A stretch of 40,547 bases of DNA from Escherichia phage MirsaeidiM_Esher2: sequence record PQ464628.1, one strand, 5' to 3'. The position numbers and the translations under genes were made by a program. The notes under the pieces were generated by a model. The model had not been told where the DNA came from. It ran no database searches and saw only the letters and a list, made by a program, of their open reading frames with translations. How positions within the stretch are numbered: the stretch's first letter is position 1; each line of letters begins with the position of its first letter. Below are positions 1 through 40,547 of this stretch, piece by piece.

Positions 1-86
1 TCATTACTATATGTAGTGGCCTTTATGGTTAACACTAACTAGTGGAGGAGACTCTACGTGAAATCTGATAAACCGGGAGGGCAACT

Positions 87-3064: not shown

Positions 3065-3265
3065 TCTCACAGTTCAAGAACCTCAAGTCTCCCCATAGGC
3101 CCTCTTTCAGTCCAGACCAAAGGCCCTACCCAAGTCTATCATAAGGTTAGACCGATGGTCAAGACTTCAGGTCAACGATAGGTCTAGGCTATGGCTTAGG
3201 GAAGGACGATAGGTGGTGACTATTGGTCTGTCTTTGAGTCTCTATCTGTATCAGACCTTGAGTCA
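3065..3265. repeat. candidate terminal-repeat region (collapsed single copy) with genome end near 3065
   Basis: Starts TCTCACAGT, as the T7 left end does (TCTCACAGTGTACGG, recalled); flanked on both sides by CCTACAGT repeat arrays; boundaries approximate. Confidence 0.3.
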
Positions 3266-3322
3266 CTACCTACAGTCTAACTACCTACAGTCTAACTACC
3301 TACAGTCTAACTACCTACAGTC
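3266..3322. repeat. tandem 15-bp repeat CTACCTACAGTCTAA (3 full copies + 12-nt partial)
   Basis: Read directly; two further CCTACAGT copies at 3344..3367; produces the artefactual SNYLQ-repeat ORF 3213..3410. Confidence 0.9.
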
Positions 3323-12599: not shown

Positions 12600-12820
12600 C
12601 TCAAGAAGTTAAGGTCGTTCGTAAGCGTCTGACCATTGATAAAATCCCGGTAGGCTATGCGTTTATCGTCCACGGTAAGCCTGGTGAAGTGTACGTGAAG
12701 ATTAGTAACTCTCACGTCTTCAACCATAAGTTGCTCCAGATGCACACCACGGATGCTAACCGCTTCCAACGTCATCTGAACCTCGTAGCTGTAGAGCTGG
12801 TGGTGTATGATGGTGAGTAA
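12596..12820 (+). CDS. hypothetical protein (74 aa)
   Basis: ATG overlaps gp3 stop (ATGA); lies between genes 3 and 3.5. Confidence 0.55.
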   Translation: MTQEVKVVRKRLTIDKIPVGYAFIVHGKPGEVYVKISNSHVFNHKLLQMHTTDANRFQRHLNLVAVELVVYDGE

Positions 12821-13274
12821 GGTTCAGTTCAACCCACGGTCCCGGACTGACGCTATCTTCGTTCACTGTTCGGCTACCAAGCCAGAGATGGACATCGGGG
12901 TAGAGACCATCCGTATGTGGCACAAGCAGCAAGGCTGGCTGGACGTAGGCTACCACTTTATCATCAAGCGCGATGGTACTGTGGAAGAGGGTCGCCCGGT
13001 CAATGTCGTAGGGTCACACGTTAAGGACTGGAACTCACGGTCTGTAGGCGTCTGCCTTGTAGGGGGAATTGACGCTAAGGGTCAGTTTGAAGCTAACTTC
13101 ACTCCAGCCCAGATGAACTCCCTGCGCAACAAGCTGGAGGAGCTTATGAGTAAGTACCCTAATGCAGAGCTAATGGCCCATCATTCAGTGGCAGCCAAAG
13201 CCTGTCCGAGTTTCGACGTGAAGCGATGGTGGACCAAGAATGAACTGGTTACATCTGACCGCGAATCAGTTTAG
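12807..13274 (+). CDS. 3.5: N-acetylmuramoyl-L-alanine amidase / lysozyme (T7 gp3.5 homolog)
   Basis: DAIFVHCSATKP, QGWLDVGYHFIIKRDGTVEEGR, AHHSVAAKACPSFDVKRWW match recalled T7 lysozyme. Confidence 0.95.
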   Translation: MMVSKVQFNPRSRTDAIFVHCSATKPEMDIGVETIRMWHKQQGWLDVGYHFIIKRDGTVEEGRPVNVVGSHVKDWNSRSVGVCLVGGIDAKGQFEANFTPAQMNSLRNKLEELMSKYPNAELMAHHSVAAKACPSFDVKRWWTKNELVTSDRESV

Positions 13275-13683
13275 TATCGACCCATCTAGTCCCTCAGGTC
13301 TATCCAGAAATGGTAAGCCTACTGGATGGGACGCTGGTAGATATTGGAGGACTAAGGTTAAAGGGAAGCCAGTAATGTGCCACGTCATAATCATGATGCT
13401 CAAAACTGGAGGTCCTCTACCAGATGGAATGGAAGTTGACCATATTGACCGTGACGGCCATAACAACAGGATTGACAACCTCAGGATTGTGACTAGGCAA
13501 GTCAACGTATGCAACACCAGCGTTAGGAAGGACTCAAAGTCTGGCATCAAGGGTGTAGCATACAGAGCTGGCAGAACTAAGCCTTATGTAGCACACAAGC
13601 AGCGCTTTGGAGAGAGGACGTCGAAGTCTTTCAAAACATCTAATGAAGCCATCGAATGGCTAGGAGAACAACCCAATGATTAA
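13240..13683 (+). CDS. 3.8: HNH endonuclease with AP2-like domain (T7 gp3.8 position)
   Basis: HNH motif EVDHIDRDGHNNRIDNLRIVTRQVN; downstream GIKGVAYRAGRTKPYVAHK (AP2-like); start overlaps the 3' end of the amidase gene by 35 nt. Confidence 0.8.
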   Translation: MNWLHLTANQFSIDPSSPSGLSRNGKPTGWDAGRYWRTKVKGKPVMCHVIIMMLKTGGPLPDGMEVDHIDRDGHNNRIDNLRIVTRQVNVCNTSVRKDSKSGIKGVAYRAGRTKPYVAHKQRFGERTSKSFKTSNEAIEWLGEQPND

Positions 13684-30468: not shown

Positions 30469-32751
30469 ATGGCTAGTAATATTGAATCAGCTCTGGCTAA
30501 TCGGACTATGGGTCGTGGCAGAGCGCCGGGTAAAACTATCGCCGTCAACTATCAAGCAGCCAGCGTTCAGGCTCCAACTGGTGACTCCGGTCTGGCTCGG
30601 GCGTTAACCAACTTCGTTGAGTCTGGGACTGGATTATACAAGCAGTTCAAAGACGAGGAGAAGACACGGGCCGACGAGCGGTCTAACGAGATTATCCGTA
30701 AGCTGACACCTCAACAAAGACGTGAGGCTATCCAGAACGGCACATTGCTGTATCAGGATGACCCTTACGCTATGGAAGCACTTCGAGTCAAGACTGGTCG
30801 TAATGCTGCCTTTGCTGTAGACGACGAGATTAACGTTAAGATTCAGAACGGTGAGTTCCGTACACGTCAGGACATGGAAGAGTATCGCCACCAGCGACTT
30901 CAGGACGCAGCTAAGTCCTATGCTGAAGAGGCGGGTATTAACCCTACGGACGAGTTCTTCCAGCGTGGGTTCAACGATAACATCACAGACCGCAACATCG
31001 CTATCTATGGGTCTTTCAATAAGTATTTCAGCAAGCAGTCTGAAGAGACAGCAATGTTGAACACTCGTATTGAGATGAACTCATTCCTGAACGATGGCGA
31101 CCTGATGCGTTCACCTGAGTCTGGCAAGACATTCATGGCCTACCTTCGTGATGGACTGACTACTGCTGCTATCCCCTCGGACCAGCGAGCGCGGGAGGTC
31201 ATTACCCAGACGGTCCGTGACGCAATCCAGAAGTCAGGCGGCTCAAACTTCCTACAGCAAGTACGAGGCGAGCGCATCACCCTTAACGGCGTGGATGCTA
31301 CAGTCGAAGAGATTGTAGGACCTGATGTCTTCAACGCTGCTATTGTTGAGTCACAGGGAACTGAGTACAAGCTGGTGGCTAAGTATCAGGAAGACTTAGC
31401 GTTAGGCGTTCAGTCTGCGATTCTTCAGGACGACCCAACCATCGGTCTTGCCCAGATTCAGAAACTCAAGGAGCAGAACAACCTGCTTCAGCCGGGTGAA
31501 GAACTTACGCCTCAGCGTCAGATGCTTATTAATGCCGAAGCCAGCTTACTGGAAGCGGTCAAGCGTAAGTCTGCTGAACAGGCGAAGGAGAACACTAAGT
31601 TAATCCAGACCCAGAACAAGCAACTTGTCATCGACCAAGTATATCAGCGACGTCTGGCTGGAGACAACGTGTCCACCAACTATGAGGACCTTCCGGTCTC
31701 TGAATCCACAGGAGAGTTCAAGCGTTCAGACATGAACAACTATGCGTCTGCTAAGCTACAGCAGATTGACCAGATGGACATCCCTGAGGCTGCTAAAGAC
31801 GCACAGAAGGTGGCATTGTTAAGGGCTGACACTAACAATGGTCCGTTCCGTAATGCCTTCCAGACGCTGACTCAGGACGCTGCTGGTGAGTGGCAAGCTG
31901 CGGTCATCCGTGGGCAGTACGACCCAGACAAGATGAAACGCTTCGAGTCTCTTCGTCGTGCCTACACTCAGGACCCTTCAAGTTTTGCTGCTCTGTATCC
32001 TGACCAAGCTCAGTTGTTCTCTACGTTCGACCAGATGGACAAGATGGGTCTGGACCCTCAGACGATGATTGAAGCTGATAAGCAAGCTGCAAGTCAAAGC
32101 CGTGAGATGCGAATGGAGTCAGACAAGGCGTGGCAGGAGTTGAAGAACGACTCTCGGAATAAGGACCTTTCGCGTCTTCCTACGTCTCTGGACGCAAGTG
32201 CTCGTAAGGTCTGGGACTCATGGTACTATCGTACAGGTAACGCTGACGCTGCAACTCAGCAGACTCAACGCTGGCTTAATGAGAACACCGTAACGTTCCA
32301 GTCTGAGGGTTCTGATGGTAAGTCCATCGGCATGGTGTCCAAACACCAGCTTATGGTCGGGGATAACCCAGAGTCGTGGCAGGTTGGTCGAGACATTATC
32401 GACACCGCTCGTAAGCAGCTCATTAAGGCCAACCCTTGGGTAGTGAACTCTCAGTTGTCCGTTGTTGAACAGAACGGCTCTATCTTCCTCCAAGACGCTA
32501 CAGGTACTATTCGTATTCGCTACGATAAAGAACTTGTAGGTAAACTCTACCGTGAACAACAGCAGAAGGCACAAGATGCCGCATATGCTCAGGCAGAACG
32601 TGACGCTAACAAGCGAGCGCGTATCGTCGGGACTAAAGCTGCTGGTGACAAACGTCGAGCTGACCGAGAGGCCAACATCGAGAAGCGCGGTGGGATGTAC
32701 AATGACGTCTCACTGGAGGGTATCGCAAACACCTTAATCGGTAAGGAGTAA
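30469..32751 (+). CDS. 15: internal core protein (T7 gp15 homolog)
   Basis: 760 aa; SD GAGGAGG; size and position as T7 gp15. Confidence 0.93.
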   Translation: MASNIESALANRTMGRGRAPGKTIAVNYQAASVQAPTGDSGLARALTNFVESGTGLYKQFKDEEKTRADERSNEIIRKLTPQQRREAIQNGTLLYQDDPYAMEALRVKTGRNAAFAVDDEINVKIQNGEFRTRQDMEEYRHQRLQDAAKSYAEEAGINPTDEFFQRGFNDNITDRNIAIYGSFNKYFSKQSEETAMLNTRIEMNSFLNDGDLMRSPESGKTFMAYLRDGLTTAAIPSDQRAREVITQTVRDAIQKSGGSNFLQQVRGERITLNGVDATVEEIVGPDVFNAAIVESQGTEYKLVAKYQEDLALGVQSAILQDDPTIGLAQIQKLKEQNNLLQPGEELTPQRQMLINAEASLLEAVKRKSAEQAKENTKLIQTQNKQLVIDQVYQRRLAGDNVSTNYEDLPVSESTGEFKRSDMNNYASAKLQQIDQMDIPEAAKDAQKVALLRADTNNGPFRNAFQTLTQDAAGEWQAAVIRGQYDPDKMKRFESLRRAYTQDPSSFAALYPDQAQLFSTFDQMDKMGLDPQTMIEADKQAASQSREMRMESDKAWQELKNDSRNKDLSRLPTSLDASARKVWDSWYYRTGNADAATQQTQRWLNENTVTFQSEGSDGKSIGMVSKHQLMVGDNPESWQVGRDIIDTARKQLIKANPWVVNSQLSVVEQNGSIFLQDATGTIRIRYDKELVGKLYREQQQKAQDAAYAQAERDANKRARIVGTKAAGDKRRADREANIEKRGGMYNDVSLEGIANTLIGKE

Positions 32752-32756
32752 TAATA

Positions 32757-35700
32757 ATGGCGACTCGTGGTATTCGCAACAATAACATCGGGAACATTCG
32801 TGTTTCCAAAGACCAGTGGGAAGGAGCTACAGGAGACGATGGGTCTTTCGTAACGTTCGACAGCCCTGAATCCGGGGTCCGAGCCTTAGCGAAAAACCTT
32901 CAAAGCTACGGTCGCCAAGGCTATGACTCAATCGAGAAGATTATCAACCGATGGGCGCCCCCCAGCGAGAATGCAACTCAGTCTTATATCGACTCGGTTG
33001 TGGCTGCTACTGGCATTCCAGCGACCCAAAGTATCGACTTGACGAACCCTGATGTCCTCGCCTCTCTGTCTGAGGCTATCGGCTACCACGAGACTGGTTC
33101 CCGGTATGACCATGAGGTCTACAAGACTGGCGTCTCTCGTGCCTTAAGTGGTGCGGGAGGCATAACCCCAAAGACTCCACCAGTAAGCGCTAACGTATTT
33201 GACGCACTCACGGAAGGACTCAAGGCTAAACCTAAAGTAGCTCTGGGCGAGAACCTTCCGACCGCTGCTGGTCTAAACATTGAGGGTCAAGCACCTGAAG
33301 CTCCCAACGAATCGTTCGGTGAGATGTTCTATAAGTCTACTGGCGAGACCATGCAGGAACGAGAGGATCGCTCTACGTGGTTCGGTTTCGGCTCGGCTAC
33401 AGAAGCTGAAGTGAAGAACTCTATGGTCGGCGTGGCTATCCGCGCTGGTCAGACCGAGGACTCACTTGATGTCATTGGCGATGTGTTCAACCCTACCCGC
33501 TGGAACAACCATAAGTGGACTCGTGAAGAGCTTGACCAGATTCGTAACGCTGGGGTTCTGCCTCAGTATTACGGAGTAATTACTGGCGGTTCTCCTCAGA
33601 ATCTGACAGAGCTGATCAACTTGGCGTTGGATAACCAGAAGTTGGACCAAGAGAAGGCCAAGGCTGGGACTGGTGCTCAGTTAGCTGCTGGTGTGATTGG
33701 CGCTGGTGTGGACCCTCTGACCTACGTTCCTATCGCTGGACAGATTGGTAAGGGTGGCAAGCTGGTCAACAAGATGTTCACCGTGGCTGCTCAATCTGGA
33801 GCACTTGCTGGTGTATCAGAGATGGCCCGTACCTCAGTGGCCGGTGGTGATGCTCATGTGGCTGAGGCTATCCTTGGCGGTGCTCTCTTCGGCGGAGGTA
33901 TGACTGCTATCGCTGATGGTTTAGGCAGAGCCTTAGGTCGTAACACTAACGAGTTCGCTGGACCAGCCACACGTCTGGAAGCTCGTGAGACATCCCGTAA
34001 CGTTGATGGTCAGGACCTGTCTCGTCTACCTATTCAAGAAGGTGAGGAGACCTTTAGTCATCAAGGCGTTAAGTTCGCTGACGTTCCGAATGAGCCGGGT
34101 AGTGTACGACTGGAAGATGGTTCAATCCTGATTGGTGAAAACCCTCTGAACCCTAAGACACGTCAAGTCTTTGACGAAGTGATTGAGCCAGAACGTGCCG
34201 CTGCTGGTGTGAACCTTGGTGGACTTACCGAGATTGGCCTGAAGCTGCTTCGGTCTGAGAACCCTGAGATTCGTGGAGTCGCTGCTGACTTAGTGCGTTC
34301 ACCAACCGGTATGCAGTCAGGGGCCTCAGGTAAAATCGGGACCACTGCGTCAGACGTATTCGAGAGACTTCGTGCTGTGGACCATCGGTTCTACAACGAC
34401 ATCGACGACGCGGTTACTGAGGCGCTCAAGGACCCATACTTCCAGACAGCATTCTGGCGAGACTCTGGCGCATTCCGTCAGGACATCTACCAGCGTGTGT
34501 CTATGGCTATTGAAGACGGTAGCGGAAACCTGAAGGCTGAACTGACTCCGGGAGAACTGAAGGTCTATGACCTGCTGAAGAACCAGTTTGACGCCAAGCG
34601 TGAGATGATGGAGAACCCGGCGATGTTTGGTCGTCCAGACGCTCAGTCTATCTTTCCGGGCAGCCGCTTCAAGGGAACCTACGTCCCGCATGTGTATAGC
34701 AACCAGATGAAGGAGCTGTACATCAAGGAGCTTGGGAGTACAGAGGCACTACAGGAGGCCATCAAGAAGTCATGGTTGACCAGCTATGCGTCTCGACCTG
34801 AGGTCAAGAAACGTGTGGACGAGGCACTCTTAGAGGCTGACCCTACGTTGACTCCAGAAGGACTTGCGGCTGCGGTCGATAAGTACGCCAACGATAAGGC
34901 TTATGGTATCTCTCACACCGAGCAGTTCGAGCGTTCATCCGTAATGGAAGAGAACATCAATGGCCTGGTGGGTCTGGAGAACAACAGCTTCCTTGAGGCT
35001 CGTAACCTGTTCGATAGCGATATGTCAATCGTCCTACCTAACGGTCAGACCTTCAGTGTCAACAACCTGCGTGAGTGGGACATGGACAAGATTGTCCCGG
35101 CCTACAACCGTCGAGTTAATGGCGATATTGCTATCATGGCTGGTACAGGCAAGACCACGAAGGACATGAAGGACTTGGTTGAGACCATGATGAACAAGGC
35201 TGGGGATGACGGTAAGTTGAAAGGTGAAGTATCTACCTTACGTGACACCTTGAAGATTCTAACTGGTCGTTCTCGACGCGATGGTGCTGATGATGCAGCC
35301 TTCGCTACCGTGATGCGCACAATGACAGACCTATCGTTCTTCGCTAAGAATGCCTACATGGGTGTTCAGAACTTAACGGAGATTGGTGGTATGCTGGCTC
35401 GTGGCAACGTTCGTGCAATGCTGCATGGAGTCCCAATTTTCCGTGACCTAGCCTTCCGTAACAAGAAGGTTGGGGCCTCAGAGATTAAGGACCTGCACAA
35501 TGTTATCTTCGGTAAGGAACTGGATGACTCAATCCGTCCGTCTAAACAGGATGTCATTGACCGTCTGCGATCTTACAGTGACCTCGGTCGTGGTACAGCT
35601 ACAGCTCTGGGGACTGCCAAGTATTACACTGGCGAACTTGCAGTACGCTCTCCGTTCACTAAAGTCCTCAACGGTACGACCAACTACCTGTTAGATGCTG

Positions 35701-36653
35701 GACGTCAAGGCTTCCTGTCTGACATCGTGGAGCATAGCCTGACTGGTAGTAAGCGTAAGTTCGATGACCGCTGGCTTAAGACCGCTGGTATCTCTGACGA
35801 GCAGTGGAAGGGCATTAAGTCCCTCATCCGTGAGTCAGTGACTCGTGGTCCAGACGGGAAGTACACCATCAAGGATAAGAAGGCGTTCAGTCAGGACCCA
35901 AGGGCTATGGACCTGTGGCGTATGGGTGACACCATCGCTGATGAAACGTTACTCCGTCCTCATAAGCTGTCCAACATGGACGCCAAGGCTTATGGTCCTA
36001 TCGCTAAGACTGTCCTTCAGTTTAAGAACTTCGTCATCAAGTCCATCAATGGGCGAACCATGCGTACCTTCTATAACGCCACGAAGAACAACCGAGCGAT
36101 TGACGCTGCACTATCGACCGTGATGTCTATGGGTCTGGCTGGTATCTACTACATGGCTCAGGCGCACGTCAAGGCTTATGCTATGCAGGATGGTCGAGAC
36201 CGTGACTACCTTAAGCAAGCTCTGGACCCGACGATGATTGGTTATGCGGCTCTGTCCCGTAGTTCACATCTGGGTGGCCCACTTGGGGTAGCTAACATTC
36301 TAGGTGGCATCGCTGGGTATGAGGACACTAAGATGCTCCGTTCGTCTATCCTACCTCGTTCGCCTACAGAGAAGCCTGAACGTGCCATCACGTTTGGTGC
36401 AGCTACAAGTGACCCTGTGATGAATGTTGTTGGTAACTTCTTGGAGCAGGTTCCAGCTTTCGGATATGCTGCTAACGTTGGCGTTTCTGCTTACAACTTG
36501 GCTGGCTACCTGAAGGCCGACACTCGGGTAAACGAGCGAGACTACATGACCGGGATGTATAACACCTTCCGTGAACTGGTTCCGAACGACCCGATTACTC
36601 AGAAGTTGCTACTGGGAACGTTTGAGGAGCAAGGTATCCACATCAAGGACTAA
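32757..36653 (+). CDS. 16: internal core protein (T7 gp16 homolog) with divergent N-terminal domain
   Basis: 1298 aa; central/C-terminal regions colinear with recalled T7 gp16 (NPAMFG, GTYVPHVYS, EARNLFDSD, RVNGDIAIM, MDLWR, AALSRSS); N-terminal ~120 aa lack the T7 SLT motif. Confidence 0.95.
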   Translation: MATRGIRNNNIGNIRVSKDQWEGATGDDGSFVTFDSPESGVRALAKNLQSYGRQGYDSIEKIINRWAPPSENATQSYIDSVVAATGIPATQSIDLTNPDVLASLSEAIGYHETGSRYDHEVYKTGVSRALSGAGGITPKTPPVSANVFDALTEGLKAKPKVALGENLPTAAGLNIEGQAPEAPNESFGEMFYKSTGETMQEREDRSTWFGFGSATEAEVKNSMVGVAIRAGQTEDSLDVIGDVFNPTRWNNHKWTREELDQIRNAGVLPQYYGVITGGSPQNLTELINLALDNQKLDQEKAKAGTGAQLAAGVIGAGVDPLTYVPIAGQIGKGGKLVNKMFTVAAQSGALAGVSEMARTSVAGGDAHVAEAILGGALFGGGMTAIADGLGRALGRNTNEFAGPATRLEARETSRNVDGQDLSRLPIQEGEETFSHQGVKFADVPNEPGSVRLEDGSILIGENPLNPKTRQVFDEVIEPERAAAGVNLGGLTEIGLKLLRSENPEIRGVAADLVRSPTGMQSGASGKIGTTASDVFERLRAVDHRFYNDIDDAVTEALKDPYFQTAFWRDSGAFRQDIYQRVSMAIEDGSGNLKAELTPGELKVYDLLKNQFDAKREMMENPAMFGRPDAQSIFPGSRFKGTYVPHVYSNQMKELYIKELGSTEALQEAIKKSWLTSYASRPEVKKRVDEALLEADPTLTPEGLAAAVDKYANDKAYGISHTEQFERSSVMEENINGLVGLENNSFLEARNLFDSDMSIVLPNGQTFSVNNLREWDMDKIVPAYNRRVNGDIAIMAGTGKTTKDMKDLVETMMNKAGDDGKLKGEVSTLRDTLKILTGRSRRDGADDAAFATVMRTMTDLSFFAKNAYMGVQNLTEIGGMLARGNVRAMLHGVPIFRDLAFRNKKVGASEIKDLHNVIFGKELDDSIRPSKQDVIDRLRSYSDLGRGTATALGTAKYYTGELAVRSPFTKVLNGTTNYLLDAGRQGFLSDIVEHSLTGSKRKFDDRWLKTAGISDEQWKGIKSLIRESVTRGPDGKYTIKDKKAFSQDPRAMDLWRMGDTIADETLLRPHKLSNMDAKAYGPIAKTVLQFKNFVIKSINGRTMRTFYNATKNNRAIDAALSTVMSMGLAGIYYMAQAHVKAYAMQDGRDRDYLKQALDPTMIGYAALSRSSHLGGPLGVANILGGIAGYEDTKMLRSSILPRSPTEKPERAITFGAATSDPVMNVVGNFLEQVPAFGYAANVGVSAYNLAGYLKADTRVNERDYMTGMYNTFRELVPNDPITQKLLLGTFEEQGIHIKD

Positions 36654-36717: not shown

Positions 36718-39700
36718 ATGTCCACGATTACACAATTCCCTTCAGGAAACACTCAGTACAGGATTGAGTTCGACTACCTAGCCAGAACGTTTGTTGTTGT
36801 TACGCTGGTGAATAGCTCTAACCCTACCCTGAACCGTGTACTGGAAGTTGGTCGAGATTACCGATTCCTTAATCCAACGATGATTGAGATGTTGGTTGAC
36901 CAATCAGGTTTCGACATCGTTCGTATTCACCGTCAGACTGGAACTGACTTAGTGGTAGACTTCAGGAATGGCTCAGTGTTGACAGCTAGTGACCTGACAA
37001 ATTCAGAGCTTCAGGCTATCCATATTGCAGAAGAAGGTCGAGACCAAACGGTTGACTTAGCGAAGGAATATGCCGATGCTGCTGGTAGCTCTGCTGGCAA
37101 CGCTAAGGATAGCGAGGACGAAGCACGCCGAATCGCTGAGAGTATCAGGGCAGCTGGTCTAATTGGCTATATGACCCGTCGCTCCTTCGAGAAAGGCTAC
37201 AACGTTACAACATGGAGCGAGGTCCTTCTATGGGAAGAGGATGGTGATTATTACCGCTGGGATGGTACGCTTCCAAAGAACGTTCCTGCTGGTTCAACTC
37301 CTGAAACTTCCGGTGGGATTGGATTAGGTGCGTGGGTTAGTGTTGGTGATGCTGCTTTAAGAAGTCAGATTTCAAACCCGGAAGGGGCAATACTCTACCC
37401 TGAATTACATAGAGCACGCTGGCTTGATGAAAAAGATGTTCGTGGTTGGGGTGCTAAAGGGGATGGTGTCACTGATGATACAGCAGCGTTAACGAGCGCA
37501 TTAAACGACACACCGGTTGGACAAAAGATTAATGGCAATGGGGGAACATATAAGGTCACATCCCTGCCTGACATTAGTAGATTCGTCAATACTCGTTTTG
37601 TATATGAACGTATTCCAGGTCAGCCGCTTTATTATGTCTCTGAAGAATTTGTTCAAGGTGAACTGTTTAAAATAACGGACACCCCTTATTACAATGCGTG
37701 GCCACAGGATAAAGCGTTCGTTTACGATGATGTTATTTACTGCCCGTTCATGGCTGGTGATAGACATGGGGTCAGTCGTCTGCATGTATCATGGGTTAAG
37801 TCTGGTGATGACGGTCAAACATGGTCTACTCCAGAGTGGTTAACTGATCTGCATCCAGATTACCCTACAGTGAACTATCATTGTATGAGTATGGGTGTAT
37901 GTCGCAACCGTCTGTTTGCCATGATTGAAACACGTACTTTAGCCAATAACGCATTAACCAATTGTGCATTGTGGGATCGCCCCATGTCTCGTAGCCTGCA
38001 TCTTACTGGTGGTATCACTAAAGCTGCAAATCAGCGATATGCAACAATACATGTACCAGACCACGGACTATTCGTGGGTGATTTTGTTAACTTCTCTAAT
38101 TCTGCGGTAACAGGTGTATCCGGTGATATGAATGTTGCAACCGTAATAGATAAGGACAACTTCACGGTTCTTACACCCAACCAGCAGACTTCAGATTTGA
38201 ATAACGCTGGAAAGAATTGGCACATGGGTACTTCTTTCCATAAGTCTCCATGGCGTAAGACAGACCTTGGGCTAATCCCTCGTGTCACAGAGGTGCATAG
38301 CTTTGCTACTATTGATAACAATGGCTTTGTTATGGGTTATCATCAAGGCGATGTAGCCCCACGCGAAGTTGGGCTTTTCTACTTCCCTGATGCTTTCAAT
38401 AGCCCATCTAGTTATGTTCGTCGTCAGATACCATCTGAGTATGAACCAGATGCGTCAGAGCCATGCATCAAGTACTATGACGGTGTATTATACCTTATCA
38501 CTCGTGGCACTCGTGGGGATAGACTAGGTAGCTCTTTGCATCGTAGTAGAGACATAGGTCAGACTTGGGAGTCACTGAGATTTCCACATAATGTTCATCA
38601 TACTACATTACCTTTTGCTAAAGTAGGGGATGACCTTATTATGTTTGGTTCAGAACGTGCAGAAAATGAATGGGAAGCAGGTGCACCCGATGATCGTTAC
38701 AAGGCATCTTATCCTCGCACCTTCTATGCACGCTTGAATGTAAACAATTGGAATGCAGATGATATTGAATGGGTTAACATCACTGACCAGATTTATCAGG
38801 GCGGAATAGTTAACTCAGGTGTAGGTGTTGGTTCGGTAGTTGTGAAGGATAATTACATCTACTACATGTTTGGTGGAGAGGACCATTTTAACCCATGGAC
38901 ATATGGAGATAACTCAGCGAAGGATCCCTTCAAATCAGATGGTCATCCCTCAGATTTGTATTGCTACAAAATGAAGATTGGCCCAAGCAATCATGTTTCC
39001 CGTGATTTCAGGTATGGTGCTGTACCTAACAGAGCTGTTCCCGTGTTTTTTGATACGAATGGGATTCGCACTGTTCCTGCGCCAATGGAATTTACAGGGG
39101 ATTTGGGTTTAGGGCATGTGACCATTAGAGCCAGCACCAGTAGTAACATTCGCTCTGAAGTTTTAATGGAAGGTGAATATGGGTTTATCGGGAAATCTAT
39201 ACCGACTGATAACCCGGCAGGGCAGCGCACCATATTTTGCGGGGGTGAAGGCACCAGTTCAACGACTGGCGCACAGATTACGCTTTATGGTGCAAATAAC
39301 ACCGACTCAAGGCGAATAGTTTACAATGGTGCTGAGCATCTGTTCCAGAACGCTGACGTTAAGCCTTATCTCGATAACGTGATTGCGCTTGGTGGACCAA
39401 GTAACCGTTTCACAACTGCATATCTCGGAAGCAACCCTATTGTTACTTCTAATGGGGAGAAGAAAACAGAGCCGGTAGTTTTTGATGATGCTTTCCTAGA
39501 TGCCTGGGGTGACGTTCACTACATCATGTATCAATGGTTAGATGCTGTTCAACTGAAAGGCAATGATGCTCGTATTCACTTCGGGGTTATTGCTCAGCAA
39601 ATTCGTGATGTATTCATTGCACACGGTCTGATGGATGAAAACAGTACGAATTGTCGTTATGCCGTTCTGTGCTATGACAAGTATCCACGGTTGACCGATA

Positions 39701-39912
39701 CGGTATTTTCGCACAATGAAATCATTGAACACACTGACGAGGAGGGTAATGTCACTACTACGGAAGAGCCTGTATTCACTGAGGTGGTTATCCATGAAGA
39801 GGGTGAGGAGTGGGGTGTTCGGCCTGACGGAATTTTCTTTGCTGAAGCCGCTTATCAGAGAAGAAAACTGGAAAGAATCGAAGCCAGACTTTCTGCTCTT
39901 GAACAGAAGTAA
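36718..39912 (+). CDS. 17: tailspike: gp17-type N-terminal adaptor + endosialidase catalytic domain + C-terminal intramolecular chaperone domain
   Basis: 1064 aa; N-terminus EFDYLARTFVVVTL like T7 gp17; Asp-boxes SGDDGQTW (37801..37824) and SRDIGQTW (38545..38568); overall matches recalled K1F endosialidase; AT-richer than flanking genes. Confidence 0.93.
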   Translation: MSTITQFPSGNTQYRIEFDYLARTFVVVTLVNSSNPTLNRVLEVGRDYRFLNPTMIEMLVDQSGFDIVRIHRQTGTDLVVDFRNGSVLTASDLTNSELQAIHIAEEGRDQTVDLAKEYADAAGSSAGNAKDSEDEARRIAESIRAAGLIGYMTRRSFEKGYNVTTWSEVLLWEEDGDYYRWDGTLPKNVPAGSTPETSGGIGLGAWVSVGDAALRSQISNPEGAILYPELHRARWLDEKDVRGWGAKGDGVTDDTAALTSALNDTPVGQKINGNGGTYKVTSLPDISRFVNTRFVYERIPGQPLYYVSEEFVQGELFKITDTPYYNAWPQDKAFVYDDVIYCPFMAGDRHGVSRLHVSWVKSGDDGQTWSTPEWLTDLHPDYPTVNYHCMSMGVCRNRLFAMIETRTLANNALTNCALWDRPMSRSLHLTGGITKAANQRYATIHVPDHGLFVGDFVNFSNSAVTGVSGDMNVATVIDKDNFTVLTPNQQTSDLNNAGKNWHMGTSFHKSPWRKTDLGLIPRVTEVHSFATIDNNGFVMGYHQGDVAPREVGLFYFPDAFNSPSSYVRRQIPSEYEPDASEPCIKYYDGVLYLITRGTRGDRLGSSLHRSRDIGQTWESLRFPHNVHHTTLPFAKVGDDLIMFGSERAENEWEAGAPDDRYKASYPRTFYARLNVNNWNADDIEWVNITDQIYQGGIVNSGVGVGSVVVKDNYIYYMFGGEDHFNPWTYGDNSAKDPFKSDGHPSDLYCYKMKIGPSNHVSRDFRYGAVPNRAVPVFFDTNGIRTVPAPMEFTGDLGLGHVTIRASTSSNIRSEVLMEGEYGFIGKSIPTDNPAGQRTIFCGGEGTSSTTGAQITLYGANNTDSRRIVYNGAEHLFQNADVKPYLDNVIALGGPSNRFTTAYLGSNPIVTSNGEKKTEPVVFDDAFLDAWGDVHYIMYQWLDAVQLKGNDARIHFGVIAQQIRDVFIAHGLMDENSTNCRYAVLCYDKYPRLTDTVFSHNEIIEHTDEEGNVTTTEEPVFTEVVIHEEGEEWGVRPDGIFFAEAAYQRRKLERIEARLSALEQK

Positions 39913-40477: not shown

Positions 40478-40528
40478 GTGTTAGACTCAAGGTCATTACT
40501 ATATGTAGTGGCCTTTATGGTTAACACT
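40477..40528 (+). promoter_or_regulatory. RNase III-type hairpin candidate upstream of Rz (R18.5-like)
   Basis: Lower stem AGTGTTA 40477..40483 / TAACACT 40522..40528; upper stem AGGTCA 40490..40495 / TGGCCT 40509..40514; 13-nt loop. Confidence 0.5.
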
Positions 40529-40547
40529 AACTAGTGGAGGAGACTCT
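40493..40547. repeat. 55-nt duplicate of window positions 1..55 (circular assembly overlap)
   Basis: Exact identity read directly. Confidence 0.95.

Follow-up and report, generated by a model that had tools for sequence, protein, structure and literature searches.

Is the N-terminal part of the gp16 ejection protein of Escherichia phage MirsaeidiM_Esher2 a drifted form of the lytic transglycosylase domain of phage T7, or has another domain taken its place? The question is raised by a stretch of DNA of 40,547 nucleotides (nt), sequence record PQ464628.1, which we refer to in full as the window. An earlier note on this stretch had claimed that the N-terminus of gp16 is unlike the SLT domain of T7 while the rest of the protein is colinear with T7 gp16. 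We consider it highly probable that the head of this gp16 is an Enc34-type wall-cutting module of the ejectosome, which replaces the SLT domain, acts at entry, and was acquired by recombination. The gene, the proposed domain and the junction that follows it are located as follows.

32757..36653, plus strand: gene 16 (internal virion protein D, ejection protein; 1298 amino acids, aa), from the open reading frame (ORF) and its translation, matching PHROG 342 at E=0.
32763..33155, plus strand: predicted Enc34-type (PHA02564) muralytic domain, aa ~3-133, in place of the T7 SLT domain.
33156..33173, plus strand: conserved junction GGITPK, aa 134-139, where the gp16 proteins of the window, T7 and Morganella phage MP2 converge (three-way alignment).

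By its PHROG 342 homology and its site between gp15 and the tail fibre gene, the protein is a T7-type gp16. Its matches in the PDB are Gp29 (9vvp_L) over the full length and T7 gp16 (7eyb_I, 6yt5_G) over part of it. The alignment to T7 gp16, with E=0, is confined to query residues 119-1297 against T7 143-1314, which agrees with the earlier note, and when the 200 N-terminal residues were compared by BLASTP with the first 220 of T7 gp16, similarity began at query residue 120 and not before. In the three-way alignment, identity to T7 is 5-18% over the first ~160 columns and then rises via 22-35% to 45-65%, with a mean of ~54%. The GGITPK of the window corresponds to T7 aa ~159-164, and it varies to GISPK in K1F, GITPK in CR8 and GLTPK in Kc166A. 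Residues 157-228 of T7 gp16 are the 'molecular tape' that keeps the gp15 hexamer together (PMC8954989); GGITPK presumably marks the start of this segment. The two strings that had been quoted for the unusual head, NNNIGNIRVSKDQWEGATGDDGSFVTFDSPESGVRALAKNLQSY and INRWAPPSENATQSYIDSV, by the earlier note do occur in the gp16 translation, and the T7 motifs that it gave as TESRF and GxMQ are found in T7 gp16 as WTESRF and GMMQ. The swapped region itself is a real replacement; its end had been placed at 33120, which is too early, as the module reaches about 33155-33166.

In order to identify the head, sequence and structure comparisons were used. With phmmer, aa 3-120 match the Enc34 endolysin 7q47_A (PDB 7Q47) with E 5.7e-12. 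A family profile was made of the 58-sequence alignment A1 (the window domain with 57 diverse homologues), and against all PDB sequences it has two distinct matches alone, namely 9vvp Gp29 (1.8e-50) and 7q47_A (1e-41). The AlphaFold2 model of aa 1-140, computed on alignment A1, has a mean predicted local distance difference test score (pLDDT) of 91 and a predicted template modelling score (pTM) of 0.86. A Foldseek search of this model against the whole PDB returns 7q47 only, with E 1.6e-8 and a template modelling score (TM) of 0.80, and the predicted model has the all-helical, alpha-lobe-like fold of 7Q47. Pfam-A and NCBIfam gave no significant match for the N-terminal domain, with traces of HCNGP (E 0.08) and Glucosaminidase (E 0.1), and the score for GH73 (PF01832) was 13.7 bits against a gathering cutoff of 30.2. 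The Enc34 endolysin has been assigned to CDD PHA02564, with Glu131 named as catalytic and Trp79 and Tyr95 as conserved residues of the groove (PMC8943055). Equivalent positions were called from the 7q47 alignment, in which chain numbering equals the numbering of the paper plus one.

32952..32954, plus strand: W66 codon, equivalent to Enc34 Trp79, a substrate-positioning aromatic residue (7q47 alignment; roles from PMC8943055).
32985..32987, plus strand: Y77 codon, equivalent to Enc34 Tyr95 (7q47 alignment).
33090..33092, plus strand: E112 codon, counterpart of Enc34 Glu131, the proposed catalytic residue (7q47 alignment; roles from PMC8943055).

These positions are nearly unvarying in A1: W66 is kept in 56 of the 58 sequences, the other 2 having Y, Y77 is invariant (58/58), and E112 is E in 57 and D in one. 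Two further positions behave similarly, E71 (E 56/58, D 2/58) and N72 (58/58). Closer relatives agree: the window and each of the ten Kayfunavirus or Caroctavirus genomes compared with it retain the trio of Glu, Trp and Tyr, except that Kc166A alone has Tyr in place of Trp. This fits the suggestion of a different cell-wall-active or binding domain, the domain being that of the Enc34 endolysin with its active-site residues conserved; the conserved residues favour a cell-wall-active head over a pure binding domain.

The same data bear on whether the head could still be a highly divergent SLT (GH23) lytic transglycosylase, that is, the T7 domain drifted and not replaced. In the view of the authors of the Enc34 structure, its fold is a remote relative, circularly permuted, of the GH73 and GH23 lysozyme-like enzymes, with the helix order permuted (PMC8943055). 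The Enc34-type and SLT domains are unrelated at the family level and may share a very deep common ancestry. When the family profile was aligned to the T7 SLT domain with hhalign, the sole aligned stretch paired DSPESGVRALAKNLQSY with LNPELAINAAAKQLAGL of T7, which is a faint resemblance, and the probability was 0.1% with E 0.49. In the Pfam search, residues 15-127 of the T7 control match SLT (PF01464) with E 6.3e-31, and window gp16 has no SLT match even at E<=1. The N-proximal E-S motif followed by G-x-M-Q has no equivalent in the window head; the sole E-S pair there, in PESG at aa 37-40, is unconserved, the family consensus at this place being FxSxxxGxRA. The catalytic Glu is also late in the domain (E112), versus early in T7 (E37), and Foldseek of the predicted model finds no SLT fold in the whole PDB, 7q47 being its one match. 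Moreover, the change at GGITPK is abrupt and the body is 54% identical to T7, which argues for replacement and not drift. A profile match to a divergent SLT domain, which the earlier note had named as the outcome that would contradict it, was thus sought in four ways (Pfam, hhalign, profile search of the PDB, Foldseek) and was absent from all of them. We give the drifted-SLT explanation hardly any credence.

The replacement of the SLT domain by an Enc34-type head then raises the question of how the head arrived. Sliding DNA identity to K1F is 64-82% over windows of the head and 97-100% elsewhere (gene 15, most of genes 16 and 17), and the mismatches delimit a block.

32780..33166, plus strand: recombination cassette, with dense mismatches against K1F between near-identical flanks (sliding identity, mismatch positions).

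The last position, 33166, is in the codon for T137 of GGITPK. We estimated synonymous divergence (dS) and the ratio of nonsynonymous to synonymous divergence (dN/dS) against K1F. In the block (codons 8-137) dS is 2.27, which is saturated, and dN/dS is 0.06; in codons 138-240 the values are 0.085 and 0.10, and from codon 461 to the end they are 0.108 and 0.03. Purifying selection on the head has been strong all along, which speaks for a functional domain. Gene 16 also has a second, gradual divergent patch against K1F at 33500-34100 (aa ~241-460), of 79-88% DNA identity, where dS is 0.65 versus ~0.1 in the rest of the body and dN/dS is 0.07; it is probably another mosaic segment.

Across eleven genomes, the block of the window is 90-92% identical to those of SH4, Dev2 and KM02 and 72% identical to those of K1F and EcoDS1. 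Over the next 590 nt the order is reversed, with 93-97% identity to K1F, EcoDS1, Zappy, CR44b and KM02 and 84-85% to SH4 and Dev2. By this discordant clustering of block and body, window gp16 is an SH4/Dev2-type head on a K1F-type body. In Escherichia phage KM02, gene 16 has the window-type allele for ~115 residues and then a K1F-type ending, DPEVYQKGVERALNGISPK (aa ~117-140), and this switch of alleles indicates recombination breakpoints inside the domain as well. Recent import from an unrelated genome was considered and rejected: GC content across 32650-33250 is 0.50-0.55, as in the neighbouring genes, so composition gives no signal of foreign origin, and the mosaicism is visible only against relatives. 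The exchange is one among long-adapted relatives. The head module was gained, and is still exchanged, by recombination at conserved junctions.

A stronger version of this idea is more interesting and also more doubtful. The gp16 head could be a hot-swappable cassette with fixed junctions, the conserved MATRGIRNNN in the first codons and G-I-T/S-P-K where the gp15-binding tape begins, a picture which we put forward tentatively and which is more likely wrong than right. Equally tentative is the proposal that the cassette swaps between fold classes (SLT versus Enc34-type) across genera of the Studiervirinae and between diverged alleles within a genus. One may speculate that host murein chemistry maintains the swapping, in that a glucosaminidase would be independent of a free C6-OH on N-acetylmuramic acid (MurNAc), unlike a lytic transglycosylase. 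If both the cassette and the selection by murein hold, peptidoglycan chemistry would be a determinant of host range or condition range at the genome-entry step of T7-like phages. It is likewise speculation that homing endonucleases could aid the exchange of heads, the recombination as such being shown by the comparisons above. In Citrobacter phage CR44b an HNH gene (annotated 7.7C) separates gene 15 from gene 16 and sits immediately upstream of the head (L009, 1038-1487). The window is without such an insertion between gp15 and gp16; the CR44b insertion may matter for a recombination hot spot. Elsewhere in the window, an ORF at 13240-13683 with Pfam HNH_3 (E 4e-15), likely a homing endonuclease, overlaps the end of the amidase gene (12807-13274).

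What the head does has to be approached through its homologues. Cells of E. coli, P. aeruginosa and Hafnia with a permeabilised outer membrane are lysed by a C-terminally truncated Enc34 ORF39 (deltaC), which was assigned in that study as a beta-N-acetylglucosaminidase (PMC8943055). M4Lys of the Salmonella phage BSPM4, which has a PHA02564 domain, degrades purified peptidoglycan and releases N-acetylglucosamine (GlcNAc) from muropeptides as seen by liquid chromatography-mass spectrometry (PMC7143992); this loss of GlcNAc indicates N-acetylglucosaminidase activity. Since both proteins degrade peptidoglycan in vitro, a virion-borne wall-cutting head is the most likely function in gp16, where muralytic activity and the bond that is cut would be those of the family. 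As for location, gp16 of CR44b and CR8 is annotated in its records as detected by mass spectrometry, and Gp29, near-identical to window gp16, is a chain of the solved assembly 9vvp; by analogy, window gp16 would be in the virion and be ejected into the cell envelope.

The mechanism that we propose follows T7. gp16 would be packed into the internal core of the virion and, at infection, would leave via the tail together with gp14 and gp15. The N-terminal enzyme head would open the murein locally, after which the periplasmic tunnel of gp15 and gp16 would assemble, with the segment from GGITPK onward binding gp15 as the T7 'molecular tape' does. E112 would serve as the general acid, most likely in a hydrolytic, GH73-like chemistry, and the cut would fall at the GlcNAc-(beta-1,4)-MurNAc bond, probably as an N-acetylglucosaminidase, without the 1,6-anhydro-MurNAc of the T7 reaction. 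Window gp16 retains the whole of the protein from the tape to the end. The most economical view is therefore that the Enc34-type head has taken over the task of the SLT head, and a role at entry is suggested by this analogy. In T7 the enzyme activity of gp16 is required for genome internalisation when murein is highly cross-linked (PMC8954989).

Several considerations weigh against this interpretation. T7 can do without its enzyme under standard conditions, and the contribution of the window head to fitness may accordingly be conditional. The activity of the family is that of the stand-alone homologues Enc34 ORF39 and M4Lys, from which it is extended to a head borne on gp16. The residue roles in Enc34 came from superposition on GH73 and GH23 enzymes and not from mutagenesis (PMC8943055). 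Possible endopeptidase activity, in addition, was raised in the M4Lys paper (PMC7143992) and held possible by the Enc34 authors (PMC8943055), and the bond named above is therefore no more than the probable one. Finally, the fold evidence for the head is that of a predicted model.

Some of these points would also suit a head that is inactive in gp16 and either binds peptidoglycan without cutting it or forms a structural 'wing' of the periplasmic tunnel. The N-terminal part of T7 gp16 doubles as tunnel wings and its enzymatic activity is needed under some conditions only (PMC8954989), and the evidence of activity comes from stand-alone homologues. Those homologues, however, are active enzymes; the proposed catalytic Glu and the Trp/Tyr pair are kept in the window, in ten relatives and in 56-58 of 58 distant homologues; and the dN/dS of the head block is as low as given above. 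We regard an inactive head as unlikely.

Even less probable, in our view, is that the head acts late, as an endolysin in lysis from within. Enc34 ORF39 and M4Lys are indeed endolysins of lysis cassettes, and several of the matching PHROG families bear the name 'endolysin'. The window head, on the other hand, is fused to a 1298-aa internal virion protein colinear with T7 gp16, and gp16 is without the C-terminal transmembrane helices typical of Enc34-type endolysins. The domain is also common in other virion proteins (tape-measure, internal and injection proteins, and GP11 of the NO16 virion). The genome has a T7-lysozyme-type amidase, the gp3.5 homologue (Amidase_2, Pfam E 5e-17, at 12807-13274), and a spanin of its own, which argues that the gp16 head is not the lysis enzyme; the close relative K1F carries a gene annotated as holin at the matching place, immediately downstream of gene 17. 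A wall-cutting head acting at entry remains the reading that we prefer.

The distribution of the head among phages was taken from tblastn and blastn searches of a phage collection, since a word-indexed protein search gave mainly short stand-alone homologues and not one full-length gp16. The gp16 body as query gave 1282 records, 223 of them at >=60% aa identity, which is a Kayfunavirus-level cluster. The Enc34-type head protein gave 747 records, again 223 at >=60%; the DNA of the head block (32780-33166) gave 223 records, and the T7 SLT head 1140. The three counts of 223 suggest, by their equality alone, a one-to-one association of head and body. On these counts the SLT domain is the usual gp16 head, the Enc34 type being characteristic of the K1F-like cluster. 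Enc34-type heads were also found on gp16 of Morganella phage MP2 (Minipunavirus), at ~40% identity, and of Citrobacter phage CR8 (Caroctavirus). Outside gp16 the domain occurs in endolysins of chi-like siphoviruses, PM2 gene V, D3112 orf21, an internal protein of Xanthomonas phage PBR31 and 'minor structural' proteins of epsilon15-like phages; several PHROGs for tape-measure, head and injection proteins match it, and it has been described in GP11 of the virion of the non-tailed vibriophage NO16 (PMC13552765). A profile search of 1.84 billion cluster representatives returned 18,776 members (50%-identity clusters) at E<=1e-3, from stand-alone proteins of 135-240 aa up to others of 500-1700 aa, in which the domain can be N-terminal, C-terminal or central. 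One family protein of 762 aa has four matched stretches. Many members come from contigs of 10-14 kb, under the name 'structural protein P5' or PM2 gene V; contig size and names point to the non-tailed Vinavirales.

Part of this was already known. The Enc34-type domain has a published structure and activity, and the protein has been available as a sequence (K1F, 2005) and apparently as a structure (9vvp). It is likewise known that related podoviruses differ in the muralytic modules which their virion and ejection proteins bear (PMC5380687; PMC8954989). The searchable literature yielded no explicit statement of an Enc34-type head on a K1F-type gp16, which may still have been noted. Many GenBank records name K1F-type gp16 'peptidoglycan (lytic) transglycosylase', 'lytic exotransglycosylase' or 'MltF'. 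These labels are carried over from T7 and probably give the wrong enzyme class for 223 Kayfunavirus-type records, and a large Enc34-type family without a Pfam-A or NCBIfam model is an annotation gap. The natural pair of colinear ejection proteins with what would be two different wall-cutting chemistries is a clean system for studying the part of a virion enzyme in genome entry. As K1F-like phages are used in therapy, detection and synthetic biology, GGITPK offers a natural site for swaps or fusions on gp16. The general picture is unchanged, modular exchange of virion-associated lysins being well established; the fixed-junction cassette behaviour is the more interesting part of the finding.

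The surroundings of the head are those of a K1F-like T7 relative of the genus Kayfunavirus. Many Kayfunavirus genomes of Escherichia and Salmonella phages, that of K1F among them, match gene 16 at 93-97% DNA identity. The gene order is gp13-gp14-gp15-gp16-gp17, and the genes around gene 16 comprise gp13, gp14, gp15, a 1064-aa tailspike, the small terminase, an Rz-like spanin and the large terminase. The stop codon of gene 15 is at 32749-32751, leaving 5 nt to the gp16 start, and the ribosome-binding site lies within gene 15.

32743..32748, plus strand: Shine-Dalgarno sequence AAGGAG of gene 16, 8 nt 5' of the ATG, inside the 3' end of gene 15 (read from the sequence).

A scan of the interval found no terminator-like sites and a single minus-strand sigma-70-like match, no more than chance expects. 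A 61-aa ORF on the minus strand at 32928-33113 is antisense to a coding region under strong purifying selection. The tailspike gene (36718-39912, 1064 aa) is equal in length to K1F gene 17 and mostly 97-100% identical to it at the nucleotide level, with three short divergent patches at ~37520-37820, 38870-39090 and 39250-39470. We take K1F gene 17 to be the K1 endosialidase, and the window phage is probably K1-capsule specific. Window positions 1-55 and 40493-40547 are an identical 55 nt, which looks like the assembler overlap of a circularised contig; by these identical ends the window is the whole, permuted phage genome of ~40,492 nt. It begins in the lysis/terminase region (spanin 87-536, large terminase 533-2296). 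The long non-coding stretch after the terminase gene contains a perfect tandem array at 3265-3322, of 3.9 copies of the 15-nt unit ACTACCTACAGTCTA; in T7-like phages the stretch after the terminase gene holds the genome ends.

Among the closest known systems are K1F gp16 and the Kayfunavirus Gp29 of 9VVP chain L, which share with window gp16 the two-part architecture, a length of 1295-1298 aa and a body 93-99% identical. The K1F head differs from that of the window over aa 8-137 (72-74% nt and 79% aa identity) and is a different N-terminal allele. Citrobacter phage SH4 and Cronobacter phage Dev2 have the window-like head block (90-91% nt identity), with a body more distant than that of K1F. 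T7 gp16 (7EYB, 7K5C, 6YT5) is like window gp16 in gene position, colinear body, GGITPK junction and tape segment, and its ejectosome role is presumed to be equal. Its N-terminus, in contrast, is the Pfam SLT/GH23 lytic transglycosylase (aa 15-127, catalytic E37), whereas the window has the Enc34-type domain with the putative catalytic Glu near the C-terminal end, and the chemistry is probably that of a hydrolase versus a transglycosylase. Enc34 ORF39 (CDD PHA02564 'protein V') is only 31-35% identical to the window head. It is a 26-kDa lysis-cassette endolysin with C-terminal transmembrane helices, while the window domain forms the N-terminus of an ejection protein of 1298 aa, and the presumed time of action is lysis for the former and entry for the latter. 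M4Lys of BSPM4 is a family mate, similar to the window head by domain family only, and provides the sole bond-level biochemistry for the family; unlike window gp16 it is an endolysin that has a transmembrane domain at its C-terminus. The GH73 N-acetylglucosaminidases (FlgJ 5DN5, C. difficile Ecd09610 8YXK) have a helix order permuted relative to the Enc34 type (PMC8943055), and the window head is not GH73 by sequence. Finally, SP6 gp36, K1-5 gp38, the gp35-type protein of K1E/K1-5 and phiKMV gp36 resemble window gp16 in carrying a muralytic module on an internal or ejection protein (PMC5380687; PMC8954989); by description, which is the basis of this comparison, their modules are of lysozyme type and lie at other positions or in other proteins.

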